Assembly (NCBI GenBank): GCA_023262495.1
Contig: JALRAS010000005.1
Span: 3,672-54,715, forward strand
DNA from: Bacteroidia bacterium
GTDB lineage: Bacteria; Bacteroidota; Bacteroidia; UBA4408
Reading direction: 5' to 3'
DNA length: 51,044 bases
Within the stretch, counting starts at the first letter, position 1. Each line of letters starts with the position of its first letter. A program made the translations under genes and the position numbers. Shown piece by piece: positions 218 to 12,771 of the stretch. The notes beneath the pieces were generated by a model. It saw nothing but the letters and a program-made list of their open reading frames with translations. It was not told the origin of the DNA and searched no databases.

Positions 218-1741
218 TTAATTAAACAATGGAATATTTCTTTGGTTGAAATCTTTTATTGCCGTGGCCATGTATAAATTTCTCCACGTGGCAGCTGCCT
301 CTTTATTCAACAAGTCAAGGATAGGTTTATCATCGCACAATAGGGGAACTTCGGAAAGTTCTTGTGACTCAAATTGAAAACTTTTATGGGCGGTTTTAAA
401 ATCGTGCTTTGAAGCAAATATCAAAATATTGCCTTCTTCCTCTTTGGCTGCGCTAGATAGTAAATGATAATGAAAATTTGATTGCTTTAAGGTCTTTACT
501 ATAGCTTTTATGCCTTTGCTTTTTTCACCTGTTTTAAAGCCATAATTATTAATCACCAACATCCCATTGGTATTAAGGAGTGCTTTTACTTGACTTAAAC
601 TTTCTTCGGTAATCAAATGAGAAGGATTTTCTTCACCCTTAAAAACATCGAATACAATCAAATCATATTTTTTTTGCGTAGTATTGACATACCTGCGCGC
701 ATCGTCAACAAATACCTTGGTGCGCTTGTTTAGGGAGAAGAATTGTTGTGCTGCATAAACAACGCGTTCATCAAATTCAACAGCATCAACTTCAAAATTA
801 TTTTTAACGAGTTCGTTGGCAACAACACCTCCACCTAATCCCAACAACAGCGCCTTTTTTCCTTCCACCTGCTTGCTTGCTTCATCAACCAGCAACGATA
901 CATAGGGGAAGTAGCGGTGTGCTGTGTCTTGTTGGTTATCGTATGTTTGAATTACTCTATTGAATAGCATCATGCGAATATAGGAAACAGGTGTTTGTTG
1001 CTGTTGGTATACCGGATAATCAACCACCATGATTTGGCCCAGTAATCCCTCTTTACTATACAGTATTTTGATGTCGGATATGGCAGTTTCTTTGGTCAGA
1101 ATAAGTTTACCAAACAACATCAATAAAAGTGAAGCAATCAAGAATATTTTTCTTTGCTTAATGATTGCAATAAGCGGAAGTAGGCCCAGTATTGCGCCTG
1201 TTATAAAGGCGGGCTTACTTAATCCAAAGGTTGGAATAATGTAAAATCCCATGCCAAAGGTGGCAATAATACCGCCAACCGTGGAAACAGCATAAATATT
1301 ACCGGCCATATTGCCTGCATGATGCTGATGGTCGCTTAGTTTTTCAATGATGAGAGGTGATACCATCCCCATTAAAAATACCGGAGGCATCAGAAAAAGT
1401 ATGGTCGAGAAAATGATGGATGTTAGAAAGGGAAGATGGGTACTCCATGCAATAATGATACTTGCACTAATGGGCATGGCCGCGGTGAAAACAGCTGCAA
1501 CAAGCAAAACGTAAAATAGTAATTTGGCATTTTGACTCCGTCCTGCCCAATATCCTCCTGTAAAATATCCGGCAGCCAAACCACCTAGGGTAACAGCCAT
1601 AACGGTTGCCCAAACGTAAAGAGATGAGCCAAAGTAAGGGGCTAGCATTTTAGCACCAATCAACTCCGCACTCATCACTGCTGCTCCCTCGGTAAAGGAG
1701 AGGGTGTACAAGAAGAGTCGATTAGGATTGGCTTGTATCAT
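218..1741 (-). CDS. Fused membrane (MFS-like)/spermidine synthase-like SAM-dependent methyltransferase
   Basis: N-terminal TM helices (ELIGAKMLAPYFGSSLYVW), then GLGGG, DARRY and DLIVFDVF motifs. Start moved to ATG 1741, which forms a TAATG overlap with the upstream stop. Confidence 0.85.
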   Translation of the reverse strand: MIQANPNRLFLYTLSFTEGAAVMSAELIGAKMLAPYFGSSLYVWATVMAVTLGGLAAGYFTGGYWAGRSQNAKLLFYVLLVAAVFTAAMPISASIIIAWSTHLPFLTSIIFSTILFLMPPVFLMGMVSPLIIEKLSDHQHHAGNMAGNIYAVSTVGGIIATFGMGFYIIPTFGLSKPAFITGAILGLLPLIAIIKQRKIFLIASLLLMLFGKLILTKETAISDIKILYSKEGLLGQIMVVDYPVYQQQQTPVSYIRMMLFNRVIQTYDNQQDTAHRYFPYVSLLVDEASKQVEGKKALLLGLGGGVVANELVKNNFEVDAVEFDERVVYAAQQFFSLNKRTKVFVDDARRYVNTTQKKYDLIVFDVFKGEENPSHLITEESLSQVKALLNTNGMLVINNYGFKTGEKSKGIKAIVKTLKQSNFHYHLLSSAAKEEEGNILIFASKHDFKTAHKSFQFESQELSEVPLLCDDKPILDLLNKEAAATWRNLYMATAIKDFNQRNIPLFN

Positions 1742-2928
1742 TAATTTTTTGAACCACTTTTGATGATGGTATATTTTGTTTTTAGTTTTAAAAACCAACC
1801 TTCGAAGTAGGCATACGACAGCCATGATACCAGAATGGTGAGTGCGGTTACTGAAGCATAAATAACCAACTGCGGTATGAGTTCGTTGGAAGGCATGATG
1901 CCTGCTGCTTTCATTAAATAAATTACAAGCGGTATCAACATGAAGTGGTACATGTACATGCTATACGAAATTTTACCTAAGAAATTAAACACATCATTTT
2001 CAAGTTTGATGATGGAATCGGGATTGCCCGAAACATTGGCAATAATAAATAGGAAAATTACACTGTAAACTAAGTGAATGCCATCTTGTATGGCAGGAGG
2101 TGTAAATAAAATCAAAATAGGAATACAGAGTAAGCACATTGGAAGCACAATAGGTTGGTACACCAAATTTTTAAATTGTGTTTTGTAATTGTAAAGTAGG
2201 TAGGCACCCATACCACCAATTGTCATAGATTCTATTTTGGTCATAGCCAAGAATTTTTTAATGATTGCAAGTGTTGGACTGCCATATCCGGCCTTGAACA
2301 AAATTAACACAAATACCTTAAGACCAATCATGATGCAAAATACAATGACCAACATTTTGAAAATATTACCGGCTTTTTTGGCAAGTACAGGCCATATCAA
2401 ATAAAATTGTTCCTCAACACCAATCGACCATGTTTGACTAATCATAGGCACAGGTGAAAAAATGGCATGGGCAATATTTGGGAAGATAATTAAATAAAGG
2501 AATAGATTGATTCCAAAATGATCGTTAAGTTCTTTACTTGAAAAGCTAATCGATCCATTGACAATATATGGAACAACAAAAAAACCCAAAATAACAATAA
2601 GGTAGTAGAGGGGCCAAATTCTCAAGATCCTTCGCAAGTAGAACTTTTTAACTGCAATTGTTCCTGTTTTTGCTTTCTCAACAAGGAGTAAATAAGTGAT
2701 TAAAAAACCACTCAATACAAAGAAGAAATAAACTCCCAAACCTCCTGCCTCAAACACAAATGTATTTACAGCACTTTTCAAGGTTAGGATATTTGAACTA
2801 TGATTTCCCCACAAATTTGGTAACCCCATAAAATGTTTCACCAATTCTATATGTGTAACCACTACTGCCATTGCAGCAAAGAAACGCAGCCCGTTTAACC
2901 CCGGAAAATAAACCTTGTTATTATCCAT
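1741..2928 (-). CDS. Acyltransferase family 3 (OafA-like membrane O-acyltransferase)
   Basis: LNGLRFFAA, GVYFFFVLSGFLIT, RRILRIWPLYY, WSIGVEEQFY and GKISYSMYMYH motifs. Confidence 0.9.
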   Translation of the reverse strand: MDNNKVYFPGLNGLRFFAAMAVVVTHIELVKHFMGLPNLWGNHSSNILTLKSAVNTFVFEAGGLGVYFFFVLSGFLITYLLLVEKAKTGTIAVKKFYLRRILRIWPLYYLIVILGFFVVPYIVNGSISFSSKELNDHFGINLFLYLIIFPNIAHAIFSPVPMISQTWSIGVEEQFYLIWPVLAKKAGNIFKMLVIVFCIMIGLKVFVLILFKAGYGSPTLAIIKKFLAMTKIESMTIGGMGAYLLYNYKTQFKNLVYQPIVLPMCLLCIPILILFTPPAIQDGIHLVYSVIFLFIIANVSGNPDSIIKLENDVFNFLGKISYSMYMYHFMLIPLVIYLMKAAGIMPSNELIPQLVIYASVTALTILVSWLSYAYFEGWFLKLKTKYTIIKSGSKN

Positions 2929-3377: not shown

Positions 3378-4031
3378 CTACTTTTTTTTGATTTCGCTGC
3401 TGAGTTCAATGACTGTATTATACACGTATGTCTTGTGCTTTTTTATAGACACGCCAATGTATAAGACCTCGGGATTGAGTAGCGATTTTCTATGACTCAA
3501 GCTAGGAATGCCCTCGTCAATGAGTAAATCTATAACTATGCTAAAGGCATCGCCATAGCCATATTGACAATTTTCAAACACTTTTTTATATCTCTTGCTC
3601 AAGTGTGCTGCGCGCATTTCATAAGTTTCACCGGTGGGTGAATTGTGTCCTACCTTACCTTTAACGCCCATTTCGGTAGCATGTTTTTTAGCCATTTCAT
3701 ACAGGTCAAATTTAGGTTCAATGCATCCTGTTGCTTGCATGTTGTTGAGATCTTTCAGTAAACTGCTTAAGTAAGAAGTCTTCTCTATGGCTGCAGAATC
3801 TAGATAGTCTTTAAGATAGGTATCTGCAAACAACTTAGGATTGATACGTACCATGTTGATGTACATCACAACAGCTTTTTCTTCAGCCGTAAGATAGCCG
3901 GTTGATTGCGCAGTTTGACATTTTTTTAGCAATGAATCGGGCCACTCTGCTGACAATGCCCCAGCAGGGCAACTCAAAAAAACATACATGACCAATCCAA
4001 TATAGTGCTTCATTCTTTTATTATCATGCAA
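3378..4031 (-). CDS. CAP (SCP-like) domain secreted protein
   Basis: Signal-like N-terminus; INMVRINP, AKKHATEM, GHNSP, ENCQYG and HRKSLLNP motifs. Confidence 0.85.
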   Translation of the reverse strand: MHDNKRMKHYIGLVMYVFLSCPAGALSAEWPDSLLKKCQTAQSTGYLTAEEKAVVMYINMVRINPKLFADTYLKDYLDSAAIEKTSYLSSLLKDLNNMQATGCIEPKFDLYEMAKKHATEMGVKGKVGHNSPTGETYEMRAAHLSKRYKKVFENCQYGYGDAFSIVIDLLIDEGIPSLSHRKSLLNPEVLYIGVSIKKHKTYVYNTVIELSSEIKKK

Positions 4032-4056: not shown

Positions 4057-5700
4057 TTAAAATACTTGTTTCCCATCGCTGAATGTTTTTAAAACCTTGA
4101 TATAAGGAATATCATACTCATTGCAATTCATAATGTCTTTATCAATAATGATAAAGTCAGCTGCTTTGCCCACTTCCAGGCTGCCTCTCATTTTCTCTTC
4201 AAATCCTGCATAAGCAGCCCAACTCGTGAATGCTCTTATTGCCTGTTCGCGCGATATTTTATTTTGCGATTCAAAACCGCCTGCCGGTATTCTTCTCAAA
4301 TCTTGACGTGTTACCGCGGCATAAATACCTCTGAAGGGATTGATACCCTCAACCGGAAAGTCACTACCACCGGCAATCATCCCCGCGTGTTCAATTAACT
4401 TCTTTAAAGCATAGGCATTTTTAGTCCGTTCTTTTCCAATACGATCATATACCCAATACATGTCGGAAGTTGCATGTGTGGGCTGAACCGATGGAATGAT
4501 TTTATTCAAAGCAAATTTTTTAAAGTCAGATTCATCAATGACCTGTGCATGCTCTATTCTCCATCTTCTATGCCTATCATTGCCAAGTACCTGATGATAC
4601 AAATCAAGGATAAAACGATTGGCAGAATCACCAATGCAATGCGTGTTCATCTGGAATTGTGAACGTGCAATTTTTTGGGCAACTGCTCTCAAGGAATCGG
4701 GATGCGATAGTAAAAAACCTGCCTCATTTTTTTTATCTTGGTATGGCTTCAATAAGCATGCTCCTCTCGATCCCAGAGCCCCGTCAGCATATACTTTAAA
4801 TGCCCTTACGCTGAGGTTTTCTTTAATGATTGGCCCACTTTTAAGGTAATGTTTTAAATTATCCTGATCAGCAGACAGCATCAAGTGTAGTTTCATTTTA
4901 AGTTTGCCGCTCGTTTGCAAACTATCTAAAAATTCTACTATTTTTTTTGAAAGTCCTGCATCGGCCACAGAGGTGAGACCTACCTCAAAACAATTTTTTT
5001 GTGCAGTCATCAAAGCATCAAAACGCTCTGATACCGATGGGTCGGGAATGTGCTTGCTTACCTCATTTACTGCGTTGTCAATAAGCATACCGGTGAGGGT
5101 TTGCTTTCCGTTTTTAGTGATTATTTCAAATACACCACCCTCAATTTTGTTGGCAGCGGTAATGCCTGCAAGGTCGAGTGCCTTCTGATTAGCTAATGCA
5201 GCGTGGCCATCCACACGCGACAGGAGCACAGGTCGGTCAGGGAACAATTTGTCTAAGCTGTCTTTAGTTGGAAAGTCCTTCACCTTCCAATCGTTTTGAT
5301 CCCAACCTCTTCCCTTTATCCATAGTGATTTTGATGTGGTGGAAAATTCCTGTACGCGTTGAATTACCTCGTTGAATGAACGTGTGCCTGTGAGATCTAC
5401 CTCGCGCAATCCTAATGCATAATAATAGAAATGCGTATGGGCATCATACAAGCCAGGGAGTACGGTCTTTCCTTGTAAGTCAATCTTTTCAGGAGCATCA
5501 TACAATTCAAAAATTTTGGCCGTTGTTCCAATAGCAGCAATTTTTCCATCTTTTACAGCCATGGCAGCGTGCTTTGAAAATGCACTGTCAACGCTATAGA
5601 TAGTAGCGTTGTATAAAATCATATCTACTTGTGTATGACTTTTACATCCCGCAAGTGCAATGATGAGTAGGGAACAGATAATGCTGATGATGTTTCTCAT
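4057..5700 (-). CDS. Amidohydrolase 3 (YtcJ-like) lipoprotein
   Basis: LAGC lipobox; PGLYDAHTH, DGALGSRGA, HCIGD, RIEHAQ and GSDFPVE motifs. Confidence 0.9.
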   Translation of the reverse strand: MRNIISIICSLLIIALAGCKSHTQVDMILYNATIYSVDSAFSKHAAMAVKDGKIAAIGTTAKIFELYDAPEKIDLQGKTVLPGLYDAHTHFYYYALGLREVDLTGTRSFNEVIQRVQEFSTTSKSLWIKGRGWDQNDWKVKDFPTKDSLDKLFPDRPVLLSRVDGHAALANQKALDLAGITAANKIEGGVFEIITKNGKQTLTGMLIDNAVNEVSKHIPDPSVSERFDALMTAQKNCFEVGLTSVADAGLSKKIVEFLDSLQTSGKLKMKLHLMLSADQDNLKHYLKSGPIIKENLSVRAFKVYADGALGSRGACLLKPYQDKKNEAGFLLSHPDSLRAVAQKIARSQFQMNTHCIGDSANRFILDLYHQVLGNDRHRRWRIEHAQVIDESDFKKFALNKIIPSVQPTHATSDMYWVYDRIGKERTKNAYALKKLIEHAGMIAGGSDFPVEGINPFRGIYAAVTRQDLRRIPAGGFESQNKISREQAIRAFTSWAAYAGFEEKMRGSLEVGKAADFIIIDKDIMNCNEYDIPYIKVLKTFSDGKQVF

Positions 5701-6584: not shown

Positions 6585-8363
6585 ATGAGTAATCCACTAA
6601 AAGGCGGAGAGTTTTTGATCCGCACCACCGAAGCGAAAGATATTTTTATTCCGGAACAATGGAACGAAGAACAACAAATGATTGCCCAATCATGCCATGA
6701 TTTTTTGGCTGCAGAAATTTGGCCGAATCTCGATAGAATTGATGCTCAAGAGGAAGGGCTTACAGTGTCATTGTTAGATAAGGCAGCCGAATTAGGTTTG
6801 CTTGGGCTCAATGTTCCTGAAGAATATGGAGGTTTTGAAAAAGATTTTGTTACCGGCATGTTGGCTACTGAAGTAATTGGTGCCGGACATTCATTTGCGG
6901 TATCTATCTCTGCACACACCGGTATTGGAACACTTCCCATATTGTATTATGGTAATGAAGCACAAAAACAAAAATACATTCCTAAATTGGCAAGTGGCGA
7001 GTGGAAAGCTTGCTACTGTCTAACAGAGCCCAACTCGGGATCTGATGCCAACAGTGGTAAAACAAAAGCCGTGTTGAGTGCCGATGGAAAGCATTACATC
7101 CTTAACGGTCAAAAAATGTGGATTACCAACGGAGGATTTGCTGATGTATTTACCGTGTTTGCCAAAATAGATGATGATGAAAATTTAAGTGCGTTCATTG
7201 TTGAAAAAAGTTTTGGTGGCATAACACTTAATCCCGAGGAGCATAAGATGGGAATAAAAGGCAGCAGCACCCGACAAGTATTTTTCAATGATTGTAAAGT
7301 GCCTGTCGAAAATTTATTGAGCGAAAGACAAAACGGTTTCAAGATTGCTGTTAACATATTAAACATGGGCCGTGTAAAGTTGGCTGCAGCAGCGCTTGGT
7401 GGCTGTAAGCGTGCTTCAGGTATTTCAGTAAACTATGCCAACGAGCGTCAACAATTTGGCCGCCCTATTGCAAAGTATGGTGCCATACGACACAAATTAG
7501 CAGAGCAAGCGATTCGCATTTACGCCATGGAGAGTGCGCTGTATAGAGTTACTCAAAATATTGAAGATGCCATCAATGCTTATGCAGCATCAGGAATGGA
7601 CAAAGGAAAAGCCATTTTAAAAGGGGTAGAGCAGTTTGCTCCCGAGGCAGCAATCATGAAAGTTGCCGGTAGTGAGGTGCTTGATTATGTTGTTGATGAA
7701 GGTGTTCAAATATACGGTGGTATGGGATACAGTGCCGAAGCGCCTATGGACAGAGCTTATCGCGACAGTCGTATCAATCGAATCTTTGAGGGAACCAACG
7801 AAATCAACCGTATGCTCATTGTGGATATGATGCTGCGTAAAGCTATGAAAGGAGAGTTAGATTTAATGGGGCCCGCACAAAAGGTTGCTGCCGAGTTAAT
7901 GAGTATCCCCGATTTTGGTGGCGATGATGATACTCCTTTTGCGAAAGAGAAAAAATATATCGAAAATTTCAAAAAAGCGGCTTTGATGGTAGCCGGTGCT
8001 GCGGCACAAAAGCTCATGATGGAGTTGTCAAAAGAGCAGGAGGTGTTGATGAATATTGCCGACATGATAATTGATTTATACATCTCTGAAAGTGTGATGC
8101 TGCGTGTTGAAAAATTATGCAGCATGAAAGGTGCCGATCATTGTAAAGAGCAATTAGAAATGATGCGTGTATACATCAACGATGCTGCGGATCGTATTCA
8201 TAAAAATGGTAAAGATGCCATCAATTCCTTTGCTGAAGGTGATGAGTTACGCATGATGTTGATGGGCTTGAAACGTTTCACTAAAACAGATCCATTCAAT
8301 AGCAAAGAGGCACGTAGAGTTGTTGCAGCCAAATTAATTGCAGAGAATAAATACTGTTTTTAA
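6585..8363 (+). CDS. Acyl-CoA dehydrogenase (long, ACAD9/VLCAD-like form)
   Basis: CLTEPNSGSD, LNGQKMWITN, KMGIKGSST, RQQFGRPI, GGMGY and RIFEGTNEI motifs. Confidence 0.95.
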   Translation: MSNPLKGGEFLIRTTEAKDIFIPEQWNEEQQMIAQSCHDFLAAEIWPNLDRIDAQEEGLTVSLLDKAAELGLLGLNVPEEYGGFEKDFVTGMLATEVIGAGHSFAVSISAHTGIGTLPILYYGNEAQKQKYIPKLASGEWKACYCLTEPNSGSDANSGKTKAVLSADGKHYILNGQKMWITNGGFADVFTVFAKIDDDENLSAFIVEKSFGGITLNPEEHKMGIKGSSTRQVFFNDCKVPVENLLSERQNGFKIAVNILNMGRVKLAAAALGGCKRASGISVNYANERQQFGRPIAKYGAIRHKLAEQAIRIYAMESALYRVTQNIEDAINAYAASGMDKGKAILKGVEQFAPEAAIMKVAGSEVLDYVVDEGVQIYGGMGYSAEAPMDRAYRDSRINRIFEGTNEINRMLIVDMMLRKAMKGELDLMGPAQKVAAELMSIPDFGGDDDTPFAKEKKYIENFKKAALMVAGAAAQKLMMELSKEQEVLMNIADMIIDLYISESVMLRVEKLCSMKGADHCKEQLEMMRVYINDAADRIHKNGKDAINSFAEGDELRMMLMGLKRFTKTDPFNSKEARRVVAAKLIAENKYCF

Positions 8364-8380
8364 ATAAAAATGAAAGGTAT

Positions 8381-8408
8381 GTGGTTGGAGTAAACTCCAA
8401 CCACTTTT
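8381..8408 (+). terminator. Intrinsic terminator after the acyl-CoA dehydrogenase gene
   Basis: GTGGTTGGAG-TAAA-CTCCAACCAC, a perfect 10-bp stem followed by TTTT. Confidence 0.75.
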
Positions 8409-8484
8409 GGAAACTTGTAGTTGCATTTTTCCTGCTTCCTGCATCAAGTACAATTGGTTAGCAACACTTCTTTACACCAAATTT

Positions 8485-8895
8485 TTATTGTAACATCAGG
8501 AGTAATGTTGATGCTCTTAATTGACCAAAAATAATGGCCTTTTGATTAAATGCGATCCCACATGCGATTGCGTCCTCCTTACTAATATCAATGATCAATA
8601 ATGACATTTCGTTGGGCCAGCCTTTTGTTCCTTCTCCATAACCCAAAACAAATTTATATCCTCGAGTTTCTACGTAGTTGATGAGTTGCTTATGACGCAG
8701 TTCGTTTTGCTCTGCCGTTAACAATTCAGAGAGAGGATTATAGGCGGTTATAAAGGCGTATGTTGTGCAGTTGTTTTCAATTAACAAATGGTCAAGTTTC
8801 TCATTTTTTTTACCCACTTGTATCACTATATCTTCAACAATATACCTTGTCTTTGCATAAGCTGATTTGAGCTCTCGGTTTTTATGTGTATACAT
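8485..8895 (-). CDS. DUF3293-family protein; putative SAM lyase-like fold
   Basis: AY..T.Y N-terminus, FITAYNP, N..RH..L, G.G...W..E.S and A...G..FNQ.AI motifs typical of DUF3293. The SAM-lyase link is inference. Confidence 0.75.
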   Translation of the reverse strand: MYTHKNRELKSAYAKTRYIVEDIVIQVGKKNEKLDHLLIENNCTTYAFITAYNPLSELLTAEQNELRHKQLINYVETRGYKFVLGYGEGTKGWPNEMSLLIIDISKEDAIACGIAFNQKAIIFGQLRASTLLLMLQ

Positions 8896-8938
8896 ATTAT
8901 ACCTTAACTTATGATTAATTAATACTTGATTTTGGCTA

Positions 8939-10078
8939 TTATTTCAACAATTGTAATTGCCCAATAACAAGCGCATCAATAATTTCCCAGGGCACATTAG
9001 CTTTTCCAAAATGTCCGTAGGCAGCTGTGCCAATGTAAATAGGTGCTTTTAACCCTAAGGTGCGTATGATACCCTGAGGTGTTAAATCAAACAGTGATTG
9101 AATGGCTTCCTCTATTTTTGATTCATCAATAACTCCTGTTTCATGCGTATTTACATATAAACTTGTTGGTTCCGCTTTTCCTATGGCGTATGACAGCTGA
9201 ATAGTGCACCGAGTGGCAAGGCCTGCCTCAACAATATGTTTGGCAACATATCTTGCTGCATAGGCGGCTGAGCGGTCAACCTTACTCGGATCCTTTCCGC
9301 TAAAAGCACCACCTCCATGCGGGCACGAACCACCATAAGTGTCAACAATAATTTTACGACCTGTAAGGCCTGTATCGCCATGCGGACCTCCAATTGTGAA
9401 GCTACCAGAAGGATTAATCATAATCACCGGATTGCCTTTCAGATCATAAGAACTAATCACCGGATGAATAATTTGCTCGGTAACAAATTTGCTTAATGCA
9501 GCCTGTGAAATGTGTTTCACATGTTGTGTAGACAATACAATGTTTTCGATGGCAACAGGTATATTGTTTTCATACCTGATGGTTACCTGTGATTTGGCAT
9601 CAGGCAATAGTACAGAGTCTTCTTGCATTCTTACTTCCCTTTGTTTTTCCATCAGTTGATGCGCTATCATAATGGGCATAGGCATTAGCGCAGGCGTTTC
9701 TCTACAGGCATAGCCAAACATTATTCCTTGATCACCTGCGCCACCATCGATAACACTGCTGTTAATTTCCGGACTTTGTTCGTGTAGTAAATTGATGTAA
9801 GCGGCATCTGCTTCACTGAATCCAGTAGCACTATCAGTGTAACCAATTTCTTTAATCACTGCTCTTGCTATGGCAATGGCATCAACATGTACTTTTGAGG
9901 TTACTTCACCGGCAATCACCAATTGTCCTGTTGTAATGAGGCATTCGCAGGCTACTTTGGCTTCGGGGTCTTGTGCTAAATAGGCATCTAAAATGGCATC
10001 AGAAATTTGATCGGCTACTTTATCGGGATGTCCGTTTGATACCGATTCGCTTGTAAATTGAAATGTTTTTGTTTTCAT
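8939..10078 (-). CDS. metK: S-adenosylmethionine synthetase (methionine adenosyltransferase), possibly an accessory paralog
   Basis: FTSESV.GHPDK, GAGDQG, GDTGLTGRKIIVDTYG and GGGAFSGKDPSKVDRS motifs. Likely start is ATG 10078 (MKTKTFQFTSES); the alternative is 10108. Confidence 0.97.
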   Translation of the reverse strand: MKTKTFQFTSESVSNGHPDKVADQISDAILDAYLAQDPEAKVACECLITTGQLVIAGEVTSKVHVDAIAIARAVIKEIGYTDSATGFSEADAAYINLLHEQSPEINSSVIDGGAGDQGIMFGYACRETPALMPMPIMIAHQLMEKQREVRMQEDSVLLPDAKSQVTIRYENNIPVAIENIVLSTQHVKHISQAALSKFVTEQIIHPVISSYDLKGNPVIMINPSGSFTIGGPHGDTGLTGRKIIVDTYGGSCPHGGGAFSGKDPSKVDRSAAYAARYVAKHIVEAGLATRCTIQLSYAIGKAEPTSLYVNTHETGVIDESKIEEAIQSLFDLTPQGIIRTLGLKAPIYIGTAAYGHFGKANVPWEIIDALVIGQLQLLK

Positions 10079-10120
10079 GTGTATTGTTTTTAAGTTTTTA
10101 CAATACATCAGTAATGGGAT

Positions 10121-10218
10121 GGCAACATGTTATTTTGACGAAATGTCCGCATCTAACTGCCACCGTGGAGTTGCTACTCTCGGTTGGCACCTTTGCCTAG
10201 GCAAAAGATTCCTGATGT
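10121..10218 (-). promoter_or_regulatory. SAM-I/IV-variant-type riboswitch (copy 1, directly upstream of metK)
   Basis: Minus strand: P1 CATC/GATG; P2 TTTGCC-TA-GGCAAA; P3 TGCCAACCG...CGGTGGCA with the SAM-I-clan asymmetric bulge; P5 GAC/GTC; L3 GCAAC can pair with 3' tail GTTGC (pseudoknot). Confidence 0.8.
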
Positions 10219-10280
10219 AATCAATAAATTAAATGGTTGATTAAGTAATATTTGTTTTAAATTTCATGTGAGTCATTTGG

Positions 10281-10679
10281 TTATACCCTGTAAATGTCGG
10301 CTTCATTTCTTTTGAATCCGGCTAGCACTGTGGACCTGTCATCAGGGCTTTTCATCACAACTTCAAAAAACTTACATGATTTAGGAAGCGCACCAAAAAT
10401 GAGTATAAATGTATGCGTTTTATCAATGGGTAGCAAAGTGCCATTAGGCCAAAAAGTAATGTTTTCGGCATGCAGTAACTTGCTTTTAGGAGAACCCTCA
10501 TCGGTAATTAAATAGGTATTGGGGGTAATGCAGATGTGAAAATCTTTGACATCTGTGATGAGTTCAATGATGACGGTTACCTGCGACTCTCTTAAGGGAA
10601 ATTTGTTGGGGTGTATTTCCATTTTGAGAATCGGCTTTTTTGCCGGTGTTGAATGAGAGGAATTAGATTGACTGTTCAT
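10281..10679 (-). CDS. Conserved hypothetical protein (beta-rich, Bacteroidota-type)
   Basis: 132-aa ORF with SKLLHAENIT, F.LIF..LPK.C..F and RN..DIY motifs, resembling an uncharacterised Bacteroidota family from memory; 6-nt gap to the upstream ORF. Confidence 0.7.
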   Translation of the reverse strand: MNSQSNSSHSTPAKKPILKMEIHPNKFPLRESQVTVIIELITDVKDFHICITPNTYLITDEGSPKSKLLHAENITFWPNGTLLPIDKTHTFILIFGALPKSCKFFEVVMKSPDDRSTVLAGFKRNEADIYRV

Positions 10680-10685
10680 AATTGA

Positions 10686-11036
10686 TTAATTATTTTCAGA
10701 GGTTTGTAAATCTTCTTCCTTCACACATGTCTCTGTTTTCTGTTTTTTGCTCGTTGCTATGTTACTTTTTCGTGCCCTGCTTTTTTCCGATTGAAGATCG
10801 AGCTTTATAAAGCGCCACCTGTAAAATGCAGGCTCCTGAAACTCATAATAACTGAGTCTTGGATTTACAATTTCTTCAAGCTGACATGATTCCGTTGGTA
10901 AAGCTCTAACAGTGTAAACCTTCATGGCCTCAGGAAATTTCATGAACTCGGCATACGCATTATTTTTAAGTACCTCCGAGAAGTCATCATTAATACATAA
11001 GATTTTATCACCTATTTTAAAATTAGGAATTTTCAT
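10686..11036 (-). CDS. Hypothetical protein, SH3/KOW-like small domain of a type common in phages
   Basis: FKIGDKILCINDD...P....VYTVR....LEEIVNP.....F..WRF pattern; AT-rich translation start region. Confidence 0.65.
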   Translation of the reverse strand: MKIPNFKIGDKILCINDDFSEVLKNNAYAEFMKFPEAMKVYTVRALPTESCQLEEIVNPRLSYYEFQEPAFYRWRFIKLDLQSEKSRARKSNIATSKKQKTETCVKEEDLQTSENN

Positions 11037-11233
11037 TGTTATTAAATTTTAGTTAGTAATTATTTGATTTGAAAAAGATGCTCAATAGGTTATGAGCCCG
11101 TGGTGCAAATCAGCAATTTCAGCTGTAATTTGTAACCAAATAACAGGATAACGGATCAACCGTAATGAAAATTAAAATAGTGTTTCATACAACAATTTTT
11201 GTTGCATGCAGGAGTAAAATAAAGTAGGGTAAA

Positions 11234-11333
11234 CTGAACTAATTTTGGCAGTGTGCCCGCATTATTTTTACCACCGTGGTGTTCAACTCGGTTGGCAGTA
11301 GCTCCTTTTTAGGGGAAGCAACTTCTGAATGCA
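11234..11333 (-). promoter_or_regulatory. SAM-I/IV-variant-type riboswitch (copy 2, leader of the unit)
   Basis: Minus strand: P1 GCATT/AATGC; P2 GCTTC...GGAGC; P3 TGCCAACCG...CGGTGGTA; P5 GGCA-CAC-TGCC; L3 TGAAC can pair with 3' tail GTTCA. Covaries with copy 1. Confidence 0.75.
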
Positions 11334-11378
11334 TGGTTAATATTTAGAGAACTTTTTTCGAAATTTCTTTCGATGGCA

Positions 11379-11411
11379 CAAATGTAATTGAAAGAAATTT
11401 AATTAAGCAAA
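11379..11411 (-). promoter_or_regulatory. Bacteroidota -33/-7 promoter (TTTG-N21-TACATTTG) driving the riboswitch/metK unit
   Basis: caaa at 11408-11411 and caaatgta at 11379-11386 on the + strand, with a 21-nt spacer, about 45 nt before riboswitch copy 2. Confidence 0.65.
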
Positions 11412-11673
11412 TAAGATTGAAAAAATTAACAAAAAATGATGAGCGTAGATAAATAGCTGCTTCCCAACCGCGAATATTAACTACAATTATTTTGTGAATG
11501 AATGACTTAATTTTTGAGCTTAGATTAATGAAAGTTAAACATAGCAATTAAGAATGGCTTATAGAAATAAGATTTGCTAGTATTCATGTTAACTTGTCTT
11601 CACTCGAATTGATACAATTGTAAACAATTATTCGCTACCTTTATTTTCCATAAAAAATACACGCACCATTAAT

Positions 11674-12771
11674 ATGAAATACAAAAGAATGCCAATAGAG
11701 GCCGAATCGCCCGAAGAGCTTGGATATGGCAATATTGAATGCAACCTTGCCGAAAGCTCGGTTACTGATACCAATTTCAAAGATCTCGATTTTAATATTA
11801 AAGATATTACCTTGTGCTATGGCGATCACAAAGGTTTGCCTGCTTTGCGCGAATTAATAGCAGCCGATTACGGCCTTCAACCTGAGCATATTATTTTGGT
11901 GCCCGGTGCTGCTGCAGGATTATTCATTGTGGCCACATCACTGCTCAATAAAAATAGTCAGTTACTGGTTGAACGGCCCAACTACGCCACTAATATAGAA
12001 ACACCGCGTTTGTTGGAGTGTGAAATTAATTTTATCGATTTGCACTTTGAAACGCAATACAAGCTCGACTTGTACAGACTTAGCACGATGGTAAAAAGTA
12101 TGCCTTCATTAATCAGTATTACCACCCCACACAACCCCACAGGCAGTGTGCTTACGGAGGAAGAATTAATGGAGGTAGTCGAACTTTCGCGCAGGCATGG
12201 CAGTTATTTACTCGTTGATGAAACATACCGTGAGTTAAGTTTCAACAATCCGCCACCATTGGCAGCAAGTATCAGCGATAACGTTATTTCTGTTTCATCG
12301 GTGAGTAAGGCCTACGGTTTACCCGGTATAAGAATGGGTTGGATTGCATGTAAAAACAAGCATTTGTTGGAAACATTCTTAGCCGCCAAAGAACAGATTT
12401 TTATTTGTAACTCGTTGCTTGATGAGCATGTGGCCTTGCATTATCTGCAGCATAAGCAGCAATTTTTTGCCCCTATCAAGCAGCATATCAACAATAATTT
12501 TAAGGTACTTGAGGAGCACATGAATAGCAGTAAAAATTTAGAATGGGTAAAACCACAGGGAGGTGTAGTATGCTATCCCAGAATTATACCAAGTATTGAT
12601 TACAAAGTATTTTATAAGGAACTCTATCACAAACATAAAACTTTGGTTGGTGCGGGGCATTGGTTCGAAACATCACAAAAATACATGCGCATAGGTTTTG
12701 GTTGGCCCACAAAGGAAGCGCTGCAACAAGGGCTCCATCATATAGAAGCAACTATTGATGGTTTAAAATGA
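11674..12771 (+). CDS. PLP-dependent aminotransferase class I/II
   Basis: PHNPTG, DETY, SVSKAYGLPGIRMGW (PLP lysine) and RIGFG motifs. Confidence 0.9.
   Translation: MKYKRMPIEAESPEELGYGNIECNLAESSVTDTNFKDLDFNIKDITLCYGDHKGLPALRELIAADYGLQPEHIILVPGAAAGLFIVATSLLNKNSQLLVERPNYATNIETPRLLECEINFIDLHFETQYKLDLYRLSTMVKSMPSLISITTPHNPTGSVLTEEELMEVVELSRRHGSYLLVDETYRELSFNNPPPLAASISDNVISVSSVSKAYGLPGIRMGWIACKNKHLLETFLAAKEQIFICNSLLDEHVALHYLQHKQQFFAPIKQHINNNFKVLEEHMNSSKNLEWVKPQGGVVCYPRIIPSIDYKVFYKELYHKHKTLVGAGHWFETSQKYMRIGFGWPTKEALQQGLHHIEATIDGLK

Follow-up and report, generated by a model that had tools for sequence, protein, structure and literature searches.

Control of metK, the gene for methionine adenosyltransferase, by feedback from S-adenosylmethionine (SAM) is well known (PMC2864571), and a SAM aptamer directly upstream of metK, as in the S-box, SAM-II, SMK and SAM/SAH leaders, provides negative feedback. 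Tandem riboswitches, two aptamers for one ligand on one unit, are expected to sharpen the response (PMC12452182). On the degradative side, the known role of SAM lyases is counter-defence (PMC7877911; 10.1101/2023.02.27.530186), and the SAM-AMP lyase, a cellular member of the same fold, acts on a SAM derivative (PMC12255297). SAM and SAM-AMP lyases have only two residues structurally in common, a catalytic Glu, which closes the T-loop at its C-terminal end, and a Gln of the B-loop (PMC12255297; PMC7877911). The T-loops of the lyases are short, with 10–12 residues, compared with more than 20 in signalling PII proteins (PMC12255297). Here, a unit is described in which a metK gene and a gene of the family DUF3293, a SAM-lyase homologue, stand together behind SAM riboswitches. 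It is located on the minus strand of a 51,044-nucleotide stretch of DNA of a Bacteroidia bacterium, in the following called the window, which corresponds to positions 3672–54715 of contig C229 of a 2.99-Mb genome that is 97% complete (G000). The unit has the order promoter, first SAM-I/IV riboswitch (RS1), ORF116, ORF132, second SAM-I/IV riboswitch (RS2), metK2 and DUF3293 gene. The parts and their order agree with a sequence-only reading of the window, all parts of which were found at or near the places that it had given. It is highly probable that the unit has this architecture and that its expression is controlled by SAM. We tentatively read it as a mobile SAM-starvation operon that combines a spare synthetase with a degradative arm of the lyase type, and hold this to be possible, if somewhat short of an even chance.

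The DUF3293 gene (8485–8895, minus strand) matched the profile PF11697 over its full length (1–73 of 73) with 63.6 bits at a cut-off of 25. An AlphaFold (AF2) model, which was based on a 15-sequence alignment, had a mean pLDDT of 92.6 and the topology beta1-alpha1-beta2-beta3-alpha2-beta4. Its beta2-beta3 loop (T-loop) comprises 7 residues, while more than 20 are typical of signal-transducing PII proteins. In a Foldseek comparison with the PDB, the ranks 1, 2 and 4–7 were occupied by the phage SAM lyases Svi3-3 (6zm9, 6znb) and T3 SAMase (8bb1_E, 7ock), with probabilities of 0.98–1.0 and weak E-values of 3.8e-3 to about 0.1. A further T3 SAMase chain was found at rank 10 (probability 0.97), and PII-like c-di-AMP binders were placed farther down the list. 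A second structure aligner, applied to 48,161 representative chains, placed the T3 SAMase chain 7ock_L first, with a Z-score of 9.1 and a root mean square deviation of 2.4 over 98 residues. T3 SAMase was the only match with a Z-score of at least 8; Svi3-3 (6zm9_A) was second with 7.2, the next match had 6.1, and the SAM-AMP lyase structure reached 5.3. Four residues of DUF3293 are invariant, including E96 and Q118, which are unchanged in 15 of 15 sequences. In the model, E96 starts beta-3 directly after the T-loop, and both residues occupy the lyase Glu and Gln positions of the predicted secondary structure, which is a match of position and not a superposition at residue level. A profile alignment with T3 SAMase using hhalign was weak (probability 1.7) and paired the same E96 and Q118 with T3 residues. 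Judged from the predicted fold, DUF3293 is likely to be a member of the SAM-lyase superfamily, outside of the Pfam family PF23780, while the chances that it has real lyase activity appear evenly balanced. Two structure aligners, independent of each other, and the placement of the invariant Glu/Gln pair support the likeness to SAM lyases that had already been proposed in the sequence-only reading.

Searches of PHROGs and PADLOC with DUF3293 yielded no match, and a PDB profile search retrieved nothing relevant at E<=10. In BFVD, a phage "DUF3293 domain-containing protein" was matched with an E-value of 6e-10 and annotated phage SAM hydrolases with 1.6e-3. The same database holds DUF3293-like domains inside large phage proteins of 769–1477 amino acids (A0A7D7K093_2, A0A6J5P8Z9_3, A0A1P8DIX9, A0A0C5AMW7; Foldseek E-values of 2.7e-5 to 2.8e-3), one of which is annotated as structural and another as ART-PolyVal-like. 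Two genomes of one genus encode DUF3293 as a fusion with a HAD-like hydrolase at the N-terminus (L015:188-1315 on the minus strand and L017:637-1755 on the plus strand), and at L041:6436-6873 the gene has a HAD_SAK_2 gene ("Swiss Army Knife" RNA repair) behind it.

To place the gene in a wider context, one genome per species was scanned with a DUF3293 pattern that was derived from a 7-sequence alignment, which resulted in 35 loci. The riboswitch scans of these loci used gathering thresholds and large inputs, and since one such scan missed RS2, the riboswitch counts are lower bounds. A SAM-I/IV aptamer was found upstream and on the same strand in at least five of the 35 loci (L032, L033, L046, L049, L055). 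A metK gene was present within 6 kb of DUF3293 in five loci, i.e., L032 and L033, which represent the genomes G005 and G006, L046, L041 (divergent) and L065 (convergent); the riboswitch of the latter is 3.6 kb away and not collinear. In L046, from a metagenome-assembled genome of the Chitinophagaceae, the riboswitch is followed by a MetK2-type metK (67% identical) and DUF3293. In L049 the riboswitch directly precedes DUF3293 and metK is missing, and in L055, from Flavobacterium aciduliphilum (DSM 25663), it heads an array of nine genes on the same strand that includes DUF3293. In G507, a genome of another family (locus L105), the order is riboswitch, second long-form metK, a gene of the ORF116 family, four small genes, DUF3293, one gene, a second riboswitch and three small genes. 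The DUF3293 gene of L046 (1751-2470) has a C-terminal extension of about 100 amino acids that is 49% identical to a separate 94-amino acid gene of the G507 array (L105:3364-3648), which indicates a gene fusion that links both families. Directly upstream of the G507 array an HNH nuclease gene was observed (L105:165-1058), which matched restriction-type HNH models of PADLOC with an E-value of 1e-21.

IMG/VR contains 12 contigs with DUF3293, where the gene has serine integrases or T7-like replication genes as neighbours. The riboswitch scan covered 10 of the 12 contigs (L078 and L082 were outside the scan). A SAM-I/IV aptamer was found on one of the ten, L081; it scores 55.9 bits and immediately precedes DUF3293, and genes for an excisionase-like protein and a serine integrase are close by. 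No riboswitch was found on L071-L074, L076, L077, L079 and L080 at E<=0.01 or on L075 at the gathering threshold. SAM-I/IV aptamers are rare in the class, with 18 hits in about 0.5 Gb and occurrence in 13 of the 151 sampled genomes, so chance adjacency to DUF3293 in at least five lineages is negligible by estimate. Taken together, DUF3293 is linked to SAM riboswitches, and other Bacteroidota as well as one viral contig with an integrase contain sets drawn from SAM-I/IV aptamers, metK, the ORF116 family and DUF3293, the order of which varies.

The two riboswitches of the unit, RS1 (11231–11337, 49.6 bits) and RS2 (10121–10223, 47.2 bits), are on the minus strand and match the SAM-I/IV model RF01725 over its full length (1–99 of 99), above the gathering score of 41.1 bits. 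RS2 was absent from the gathering scan of the whole window and was found in a 3.4-kb scan and in the scan of its own genome. By inspection, pentamers that could form a pseudoknot between the P3 loop and the 3′ tail are present in both (UGAAC/GUUCA in RS1 and GCAAC/GUUGC in RS2), a feature that we take to be characteristic of SAM-I/IV aptamers. RS1 is near-identical in four genomes (G000, G004, G005, G006), and RS2 is conserved in G005 and G006 and has an equivalent in L046. The RS1 leader contains a 10-bp hairpin (11186–11208, minus strand) that was read from the sequence, is part of the minimum-free-energy fold and is kept in the four genomes. This hairpin is a candidate terminator, and its 5′ arm could alternatively pair with the 5′ strand of the RS1 P1 stem. 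The putative expression platform of RS2 (10076..10111, minus strand) was deduced from alternative pairings. The segment CUGAUGUA (10111-10104) can pair with the 5′ strand of the RS2 P1 stem (10219-10212), and this competing pairing overlaps a 7-bp hairpin, GUAUUGU/ACAAUAC (10106-10100 / 10087-10081), which ends two bases before the ATG at 10078. G005 and G006 exhibit one compensatory exchange, U-A to A-U, in this hairpin. Both leaders are predicted to be OFF switches that bind SAM and repress.

The metK2 gene (open reading frame 8939–10108, conserved start ATG 10078, minus strand) encodes a short-form methionine adenosyltransferase with the domains PF00438, PF02772 and PF02773, and it scored 521.4 bits with the equivalog model TIGR01034, which has a cut-off of 309.4. 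The motifs GHPDK, GAGDQG, DTGLTGRKIIVDTYGG and HGGGAFSGKD, which we take to be the catalytic motifs of MetK, are invariant in a 6-sequence alignment. The sequence-only reading had called this metK atypical, and it is indeed a second, short-form copy, but its frame is intact and all catalytic motifs are kept. The housekeeping copy is a long-form metK of 427 amino acids on contig C88 with insertions typical of its relatives, and it is about 49–54% identical to MetK2, the value varying with the alignment used. The long form was present in 27 of the 27 genomes of the order, about 52–55% identical to MetK2, while the short MetK2 (at least 85% identity) was confined to three of them (G000, G005, G006).

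Beyond the genus, a SAM-I/IV aptamer followed by metK was found in five further genomes of the class sample, and in four of them (G525, G197, G457, G507) the riboswitch-led gene is a second copy, which indicates that spare metK genes under riboswitch control are more widespread in the class. In G525, G197 and G457 it is of the MetK2 type (65–68% identical), and these three genomes are devoid of DUF3293, which fits plain SAM homeostasis. A tandem pair of SAM-I/IV aptamers was seen in G525 (C87:4111-4203 and 4265-4355), 62 nucleotides apart and upstream of the short MetK2-type metK, which is followed by a member of a family of 85–94 amino acids that also occurs in the G507 and F. aciduliphilum arrays. 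A tblastn search of GenBank phages with MetK2 matched 133 records; the best identity among the matches listed was at most 56.5%, and one record fell into the 60–80% band. A phage origin of MetK2 was not shown, the phage matches being no closer than cellular metK genes. A complex prediction with two MetK2 chains and DUF3293 scored 0.00 at a mark of 0.32 and was not used either way.

From these parts, the following mechanism can be proposed. Transcription from one promoter would run through two successive SAM-I/IV OFF switches, with RS1 probably acting by termination and RS2 by masking the metK2 start region. At high SAM, little product would be made. When SAM falls, ORF116 and ORF132 would be made first, requiring one open switch, and MetK2 and DUF3293 would follow after the second checkpoint, requiring two. 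MetK2 would be a functional spare methionine adenosyltransferase that refills SAM. DUF3293 would bind a SAM-type ligand via E96 and Q118, and it would most likely cleave SAM or a SAM-derived sulfonium to the thioether methylthioadenosine (MTA) and homoserine lactone. It could then be the degradative arm of an induced SAM cycle, either as a ceiling versus overshoot or by clearing unusable sulfonium species, although such a ceiling or clean-up purpose seems doubtful.

Between RS1 and RS2, the unit encodes two small proteins on the minus strand, the 116-amino acid orphan ORF116 (10686–11036) and the 132-amino acid orphan ORF132 (10281–10679). Both frames are open, and neither had a match in Pfam, NCBIfam, PHROG or PADLOC. 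The nearest Atlas clusters of ORF116 are viral; no relative was found in IMG/VR, and a tblastn search of GenBank phages with DUF3293 and ORF116 yielded no match. The ORF116-family gene of G507 is located behind the riboswitch-led metK. The ORF132 family comprises 214 representatives at E<=1e-3, and the AF2 model (pLDDT 86.2) predicts an immunoglobulin-like beta-sandwich. This fold was rejected as a functional lead, being generic, with a best Z-score of 5.8 and Foldseek E-values of at least 0.025. A Pfam search with 18 longer ORF132 relatives detected solely a fusion to a helix-turn-helix (HTH) domain and repeat proteins. Paralogues of ORF132 are situated behind other SAM-I/IV riboswitches, in G005 after an orphan of the type of ORF138 (see below) and in G447 after the riboswitch, where the gene is fused to an HTH domain. 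Fusions of the ORF132-family domain to an N-terminal HTH of the transposase/resolvase type were observed in some members (L086:1743-2357; P0058; L031:2-295).

A third SAM-I/IV aptamer of the genome G000 (contig C263:3627-3718, corresponding to L006 1501-1592; 43.1 bits) is followed after about 390 nucleotides by ORF138, a 138-amino acid orphan (L006:1984-2400). ORF138 was considered as a relative of ORF116 or ORF132, but there is no similarity. Homologues of ORF138 lie behind riboswitches in G005 (C248) and G004 (C152), and one is part of the F. aciduliphilum array (L055:3488-3919). Further small families are distributed among the arrays. The family of 85–94 amino acids is found in G507, F. 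aciduliphilum and G525, a 135-amino acid family in G507 and, weakly, in F. aciduliphilum (20% identity, E-value 4e-8), and a 191-amino acid family is common to G507 and G472. Additional targets of SAM-I/IV riboswitches in the class include metH, an NhaC-type carrier, an AAA ATPase and more orphans.

The whole unit with both riboswitches is present in G005 and G006, which belong to the same genus, and in G004 RS1, ORF116 and ORF132 are present up to the contig end. The combination is thus found in three genomes of the genus, with a fourth cut by a contig end, and in other lineages, so that it passed the conservation test proposed in the sequence-only reading. The four frames are intact in three species. 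Between G000 and G005/G006, the flanking genes and MetK2 are well conserved (panB 94%, aminotransferase and transporter 82–83%, MetK2 85–86% identity), while ORF116 (62–65%, also in G004), DUF3293 (56–59%) and ORF132 (50%) evolve fast. In the close relative G003, the flanking proteins are about 96–99% identical, and the cassette is replaced by 516 unrelated bases between fadE and the aminotransferase gene. The nucleotide homology between the window and G003 stops at 8362 and resumes at 11672, which defines the cassette as a 3.3-kb indel. Its accessory extent is 8363..11671 (minus strand). DUF3293 is rare, being present in 4 of 27 genomes of the order and 12 of 401 genomes of the phylum sample. 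Near-identical copies of the cassette stretch are present in 19 public runs, the labels of which are freshwater, lake, river, aquatic or aquaculture.

In G005 and G006 the unit is located on the other side of the aminotransferase gene. A remnant of the 3′ end of an aminotransferase gene (residues 317–364, 40–42% identical) was seen between RS1 and panB in G005 (L022:5840-5983) and G004 (L029:1141-1284), and such a remnant also lies upstream of RS1 in G006. This suggests that an older copy of the neighbour gene was disrupted by the rearrangement that brought in the cassette. The aminotransferase was ruled out as a part of the unit, as it is a core gene that is present in 21 of 27 genomes of the order.

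In the window, the unit is flanked by a fadE-type acyl-CoA dehydrogenase gene (6585–8363, plus strand), which is convergent with the DUF3293 gene, and by the class I/II aminotransferase gene (11674–12771, plus strand). Between the convergent genes a perfect 10-bp palindromic hairpin (8381–8404) was read from the sequence, which is likely to be a shared terminator that closes the unit. It was not in the list of a terminator scan because the T-run is not adjacent. Upstream of RS1, a pattern scan revealed a promoter-like site of the Bacteroidetes type, TTTG at 11411–11408 and TAcaTTTG at 11386–11379 on the minus strand; the consensus TTTG/TAnnTTTG is what we take to be the promoter motif of the phylum. 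It is the sole TAnnTTTG with an upstream TTTG on the minus strand of 8300–11700, where three TAnnTTTG were seen compared with 1.6 expected, and it is kept in all four genomes of the genus that carry the unit (G000, G004, G005, G006). This agrees with the single promoter that the sequence-only reading had assigned to the unit. A scan for sigma-70 promoters found 13 sites versus 12.0 expected and is uninformative for this phylum. The gaps are short, with 6 nucleotides between ORF116 and ORF132, 57 between ORF132 and RS2 and 43 between metK2 and DUF3293, and the whole unit may be co-transcribed from the single putative promoter.

A 242-nucleotide metatranscriptome contig (run X20) is identical, with 0 differences, to 10523–10764 and spans the ORF116/ORF132 junction. 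The run covers solely this part of the organism's own sequence, its other pieces being short conserved metK matches with loose ends, and since the library may hold DNA, the junction RNA is an expression hint only. Contigs of the runs X6 and X9 were observed to match up to 11447 and again from 11673 with a differing sequence in between, so the stretch upstream of the promoter varies among populations. About 6.5 kb from the cassette, the window contains a fused major facilitator superfamily/spermidine synthase gene (221–1825, minus strand; NF037959, E-value 1e-55), an MTA-producing enzyme of the SAM pathway.

Several observations weigh against a SAM-starvation operon with a degradative arm. A SAM-degrading enzyme that is induced at low SAM is positive feedback and metabolically counter-intuitive. 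The presumed OFF logic is drawn from the leader sequences, and RNA support consists of one short contig from a library that possibly contains DNA, which is a hint. In L049, L081 and L055 the riboswitch leads to DUF3293 without metK, and a ceiling for a spare MetK can therefore not be the general role; 29 of the 35 DUF3293 loci have neither riboswitch nor metK nearby. PF23780, which detected T3 SAMase itself with 143 bits, did not match the DUF3293 protein of the window at E<=10 and gave 12.8 bits with the L049 homologue at a cut-off of 28; the hhalign probability of 1.7 for the comparison with T3 SAMase is also low. In the genome, which is 97% complete, neither an MtnN above cut-off nor an MtnA was found, which is not proof of absence, and an MTAP-like match was weak (69 bits, cut-off 275). 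MTA released by a lyase would thus not feed canonical methionine salvage, and a role of DUF3293 as a supplier of this salvage was discarded on the same two negative findings, with the same reservation.

Alternatively, the unit could be a module of phage conflict, in which the riboswitches guard the SAM pool and the cassette is derepressed once SAM collapses through a phage SAM lyase or another cause. MetK2 would restore SAM for SAM-dependent defences, DUF3293 would act on the phage enzyme, e.g., by entering the trimers of a lyase of its own family and poisoning them, or drive a committed SAM-less state, and the small proteins would be fast-evolving further effectors. Several features of the cassette are in accord with this, i.e., the indel that separates relatives whose flanking proteins are about 97% identical, its rarity (DUF3293 in 4/27 and 12/401 genomes, MetK2 in 3/27) and the identities of 50–65% of ORF132, DUF3293 and ORF116 compared with 82–94% for the flanks. 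DUF3293 is carried by the 12 IMG/VR contigs with integrase or replication genes and is a domain of giant phage proteins in BFVD, the nearest Atlas clusters of ORF116 are viral, an HNH nuclease with PADLOC restriction models (E-value 1e-21) abuts the G507 array, and SAM lyases are known from counter-defence (PMC7877911; 10.1101/2023.02.27.530186). However, the surroundings of the cassette are housekeeping genes, and no restriction-modification (R-M), BREX, integrase or PADLOC-listed gene was found within about 12 kb. PADLOC-DB 2.0 matched none of five proteins at E<=1 (the four of the cassette and ORF138), and among the 20 proteins of the L105 and L055 arrays there was no strong match, with only a PP2C scoring an E-value of 3e-7 versus a candidate model. 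A dead decoy would not be expected to keep the Glu and Gln at the catalytic positions invariant, and riboswitch-led spare metK genes without DUF3293 as well as SAM-I/IV aptamers before metH and a transporter fit ordinary metabolism. We therefore consider phage conflict unlikely. Quite unlikely is its specific form as a riboswitch-triggered response to an anti-defence protein, in which a phage SAM lyase would collapse SAM, MetK would restore it for restriction or BREX, and the lyase-family and small proteins would neutralise the phage enzyme or commit the cell to arrest. The sequence-only reading had offered a counter-counter-defence or a SAM homeostat. The homeostat is favoured by the riboswitch-gated spare metK without DUF3293 in three genomes, while the counter-counter-defence, which has circumstantial pointers in the accessory indel, the fast-evolving small genes and the phage and integrative contigs with DUF3293, stays speculation, as the gene context gives no support to it, the neighbouring aminotransferase is a core gene, and no R-M, BREX or integrase gene was found within about 12 kb of the cassette.

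Two further explanations concern DUF3293 and the cassette as a whole. By analogy with the binding of MetK by T3 SAMase, DUF3293 could be a PII-like SAM-binding protein and not an enzyme, acting at low SAM as a sensor, as a buffer or as a partner that modulates MetK or some other target. A binder at low SAM would avoid the paradox of a futile cycle, and the fold is of the PII-like/GlnB-like class, members of which bind nucleotides at trimer interfaces (PMC7877911; PMC12255297). DUF3293 is located beside metK in three lineages, and PII-like c-di-AMP binders appear in the lower part of the Foldseek list. In contrast, the T-loop of 7 residues resembles the loops of lyases (10–12) and not those of signalling PII proteins (>20), the conserved residue pair is that of the lyases, and 30 of the 35 DUF3293 genes have no metK neighbour, which leaves a mere binder an unlikely account. 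Lastly, the genes could be hitch-hiking cargo of one mobile, phage-like array, with riboswitch control retained by descent and no integrated function in the host. Variable arrays of small same-strand genes with families common across lineages and the presence/absence variation of the cassette agree with this idea. Nevertheless, we judge it very unlikely. The four frames have remained intact in three species although the small proteins have diverged by 35–50%, the two aptamers and their leaders hardly vary, the cassette is near-identical in 19 runs, and the repeated association of these families in varying order, in one case by fusion, speaks for selection for linkage.

The tentatively favoured SAM-starvation operon would give DUF3293 a testable biochemical assignment, i.e., as a cellular and phage-borne branch of the SAM-lyase superfamily that is linked to SAM by riboswitches in several lineages. 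With it comes a regulatory paradox, as a lyase homologue would be induced just when there is little of its presumed substrate, and the solution should reveal a new step of SAM repair or turnover or a new interplay of phage and host around SAM. In addition, uncharacterised small-protein families (ORF116, ORF132, ORF138 and others) make up a SAM-I/IV regulon in Bacteroidota. As one carrier, Flavobacterium aciduliphilum DSM 25663, is available in culture, experiments are feasible. A literature search found no paper that mentions DUF3293, and searches for a SAMase with a riboswitch or for a bacterial SAM lyase homologue with a riboswitch yielded nothing relevant; the SAM-I/IV gene-context lists in the supplements of Weinberg 2010 were not covered.

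The riboswitch, metK and the SAM-lyase fold are known kinds of part. Apparently novel are the gating of a bacterial SAM-lyase homologue by a riboswitch, the combination of this homologue with a spare MetK and the small-protein regulon that goes with them. As in the known SAM-riboswitch-controlled metK genes, the aptamer RS2 lies directly upstream of metK, but the regulated gene is a dispensable second copy beside an unregulated housekeeping one, and it is preceded by a riboswitch and two orphan genes and followed by the SAM-lyase homologue. With the phage SAM lyases (T3 gp0.3 SAMase, Svi3-3; PF23780), the modelled DUF3293 protein shares the ferredoxin-like PII-type fold, the short T-loop, the Glu at its end and the Gln in the B-loop, and both groups have phage-borne members. 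In contrast to these lyases, DUF3293 is a separate Pfam family without a significant sequence match to them, has an additional N-terminal module of 44 residues and an invariant N53-P54/N64 motif of its own, and is encoded here on a bacterial chromosome under a predicted SAM OFF switch. The SAM-AMP lyase is likewise a cellular member of the fold with the same Glu/Gln pair (PMC12255297), but DUF3293 has no CRISPR, CorA or Cas10 context here, and its match to this enzyme is weaker than that to T3 SAMase. Like tandem riboswitches, RS1 and RS2 are two aptamers for one ligand on one unit. However, they are about 1 kb apart with two genes between them, which points to two tiers of expression in one operon and not to one composite switch.

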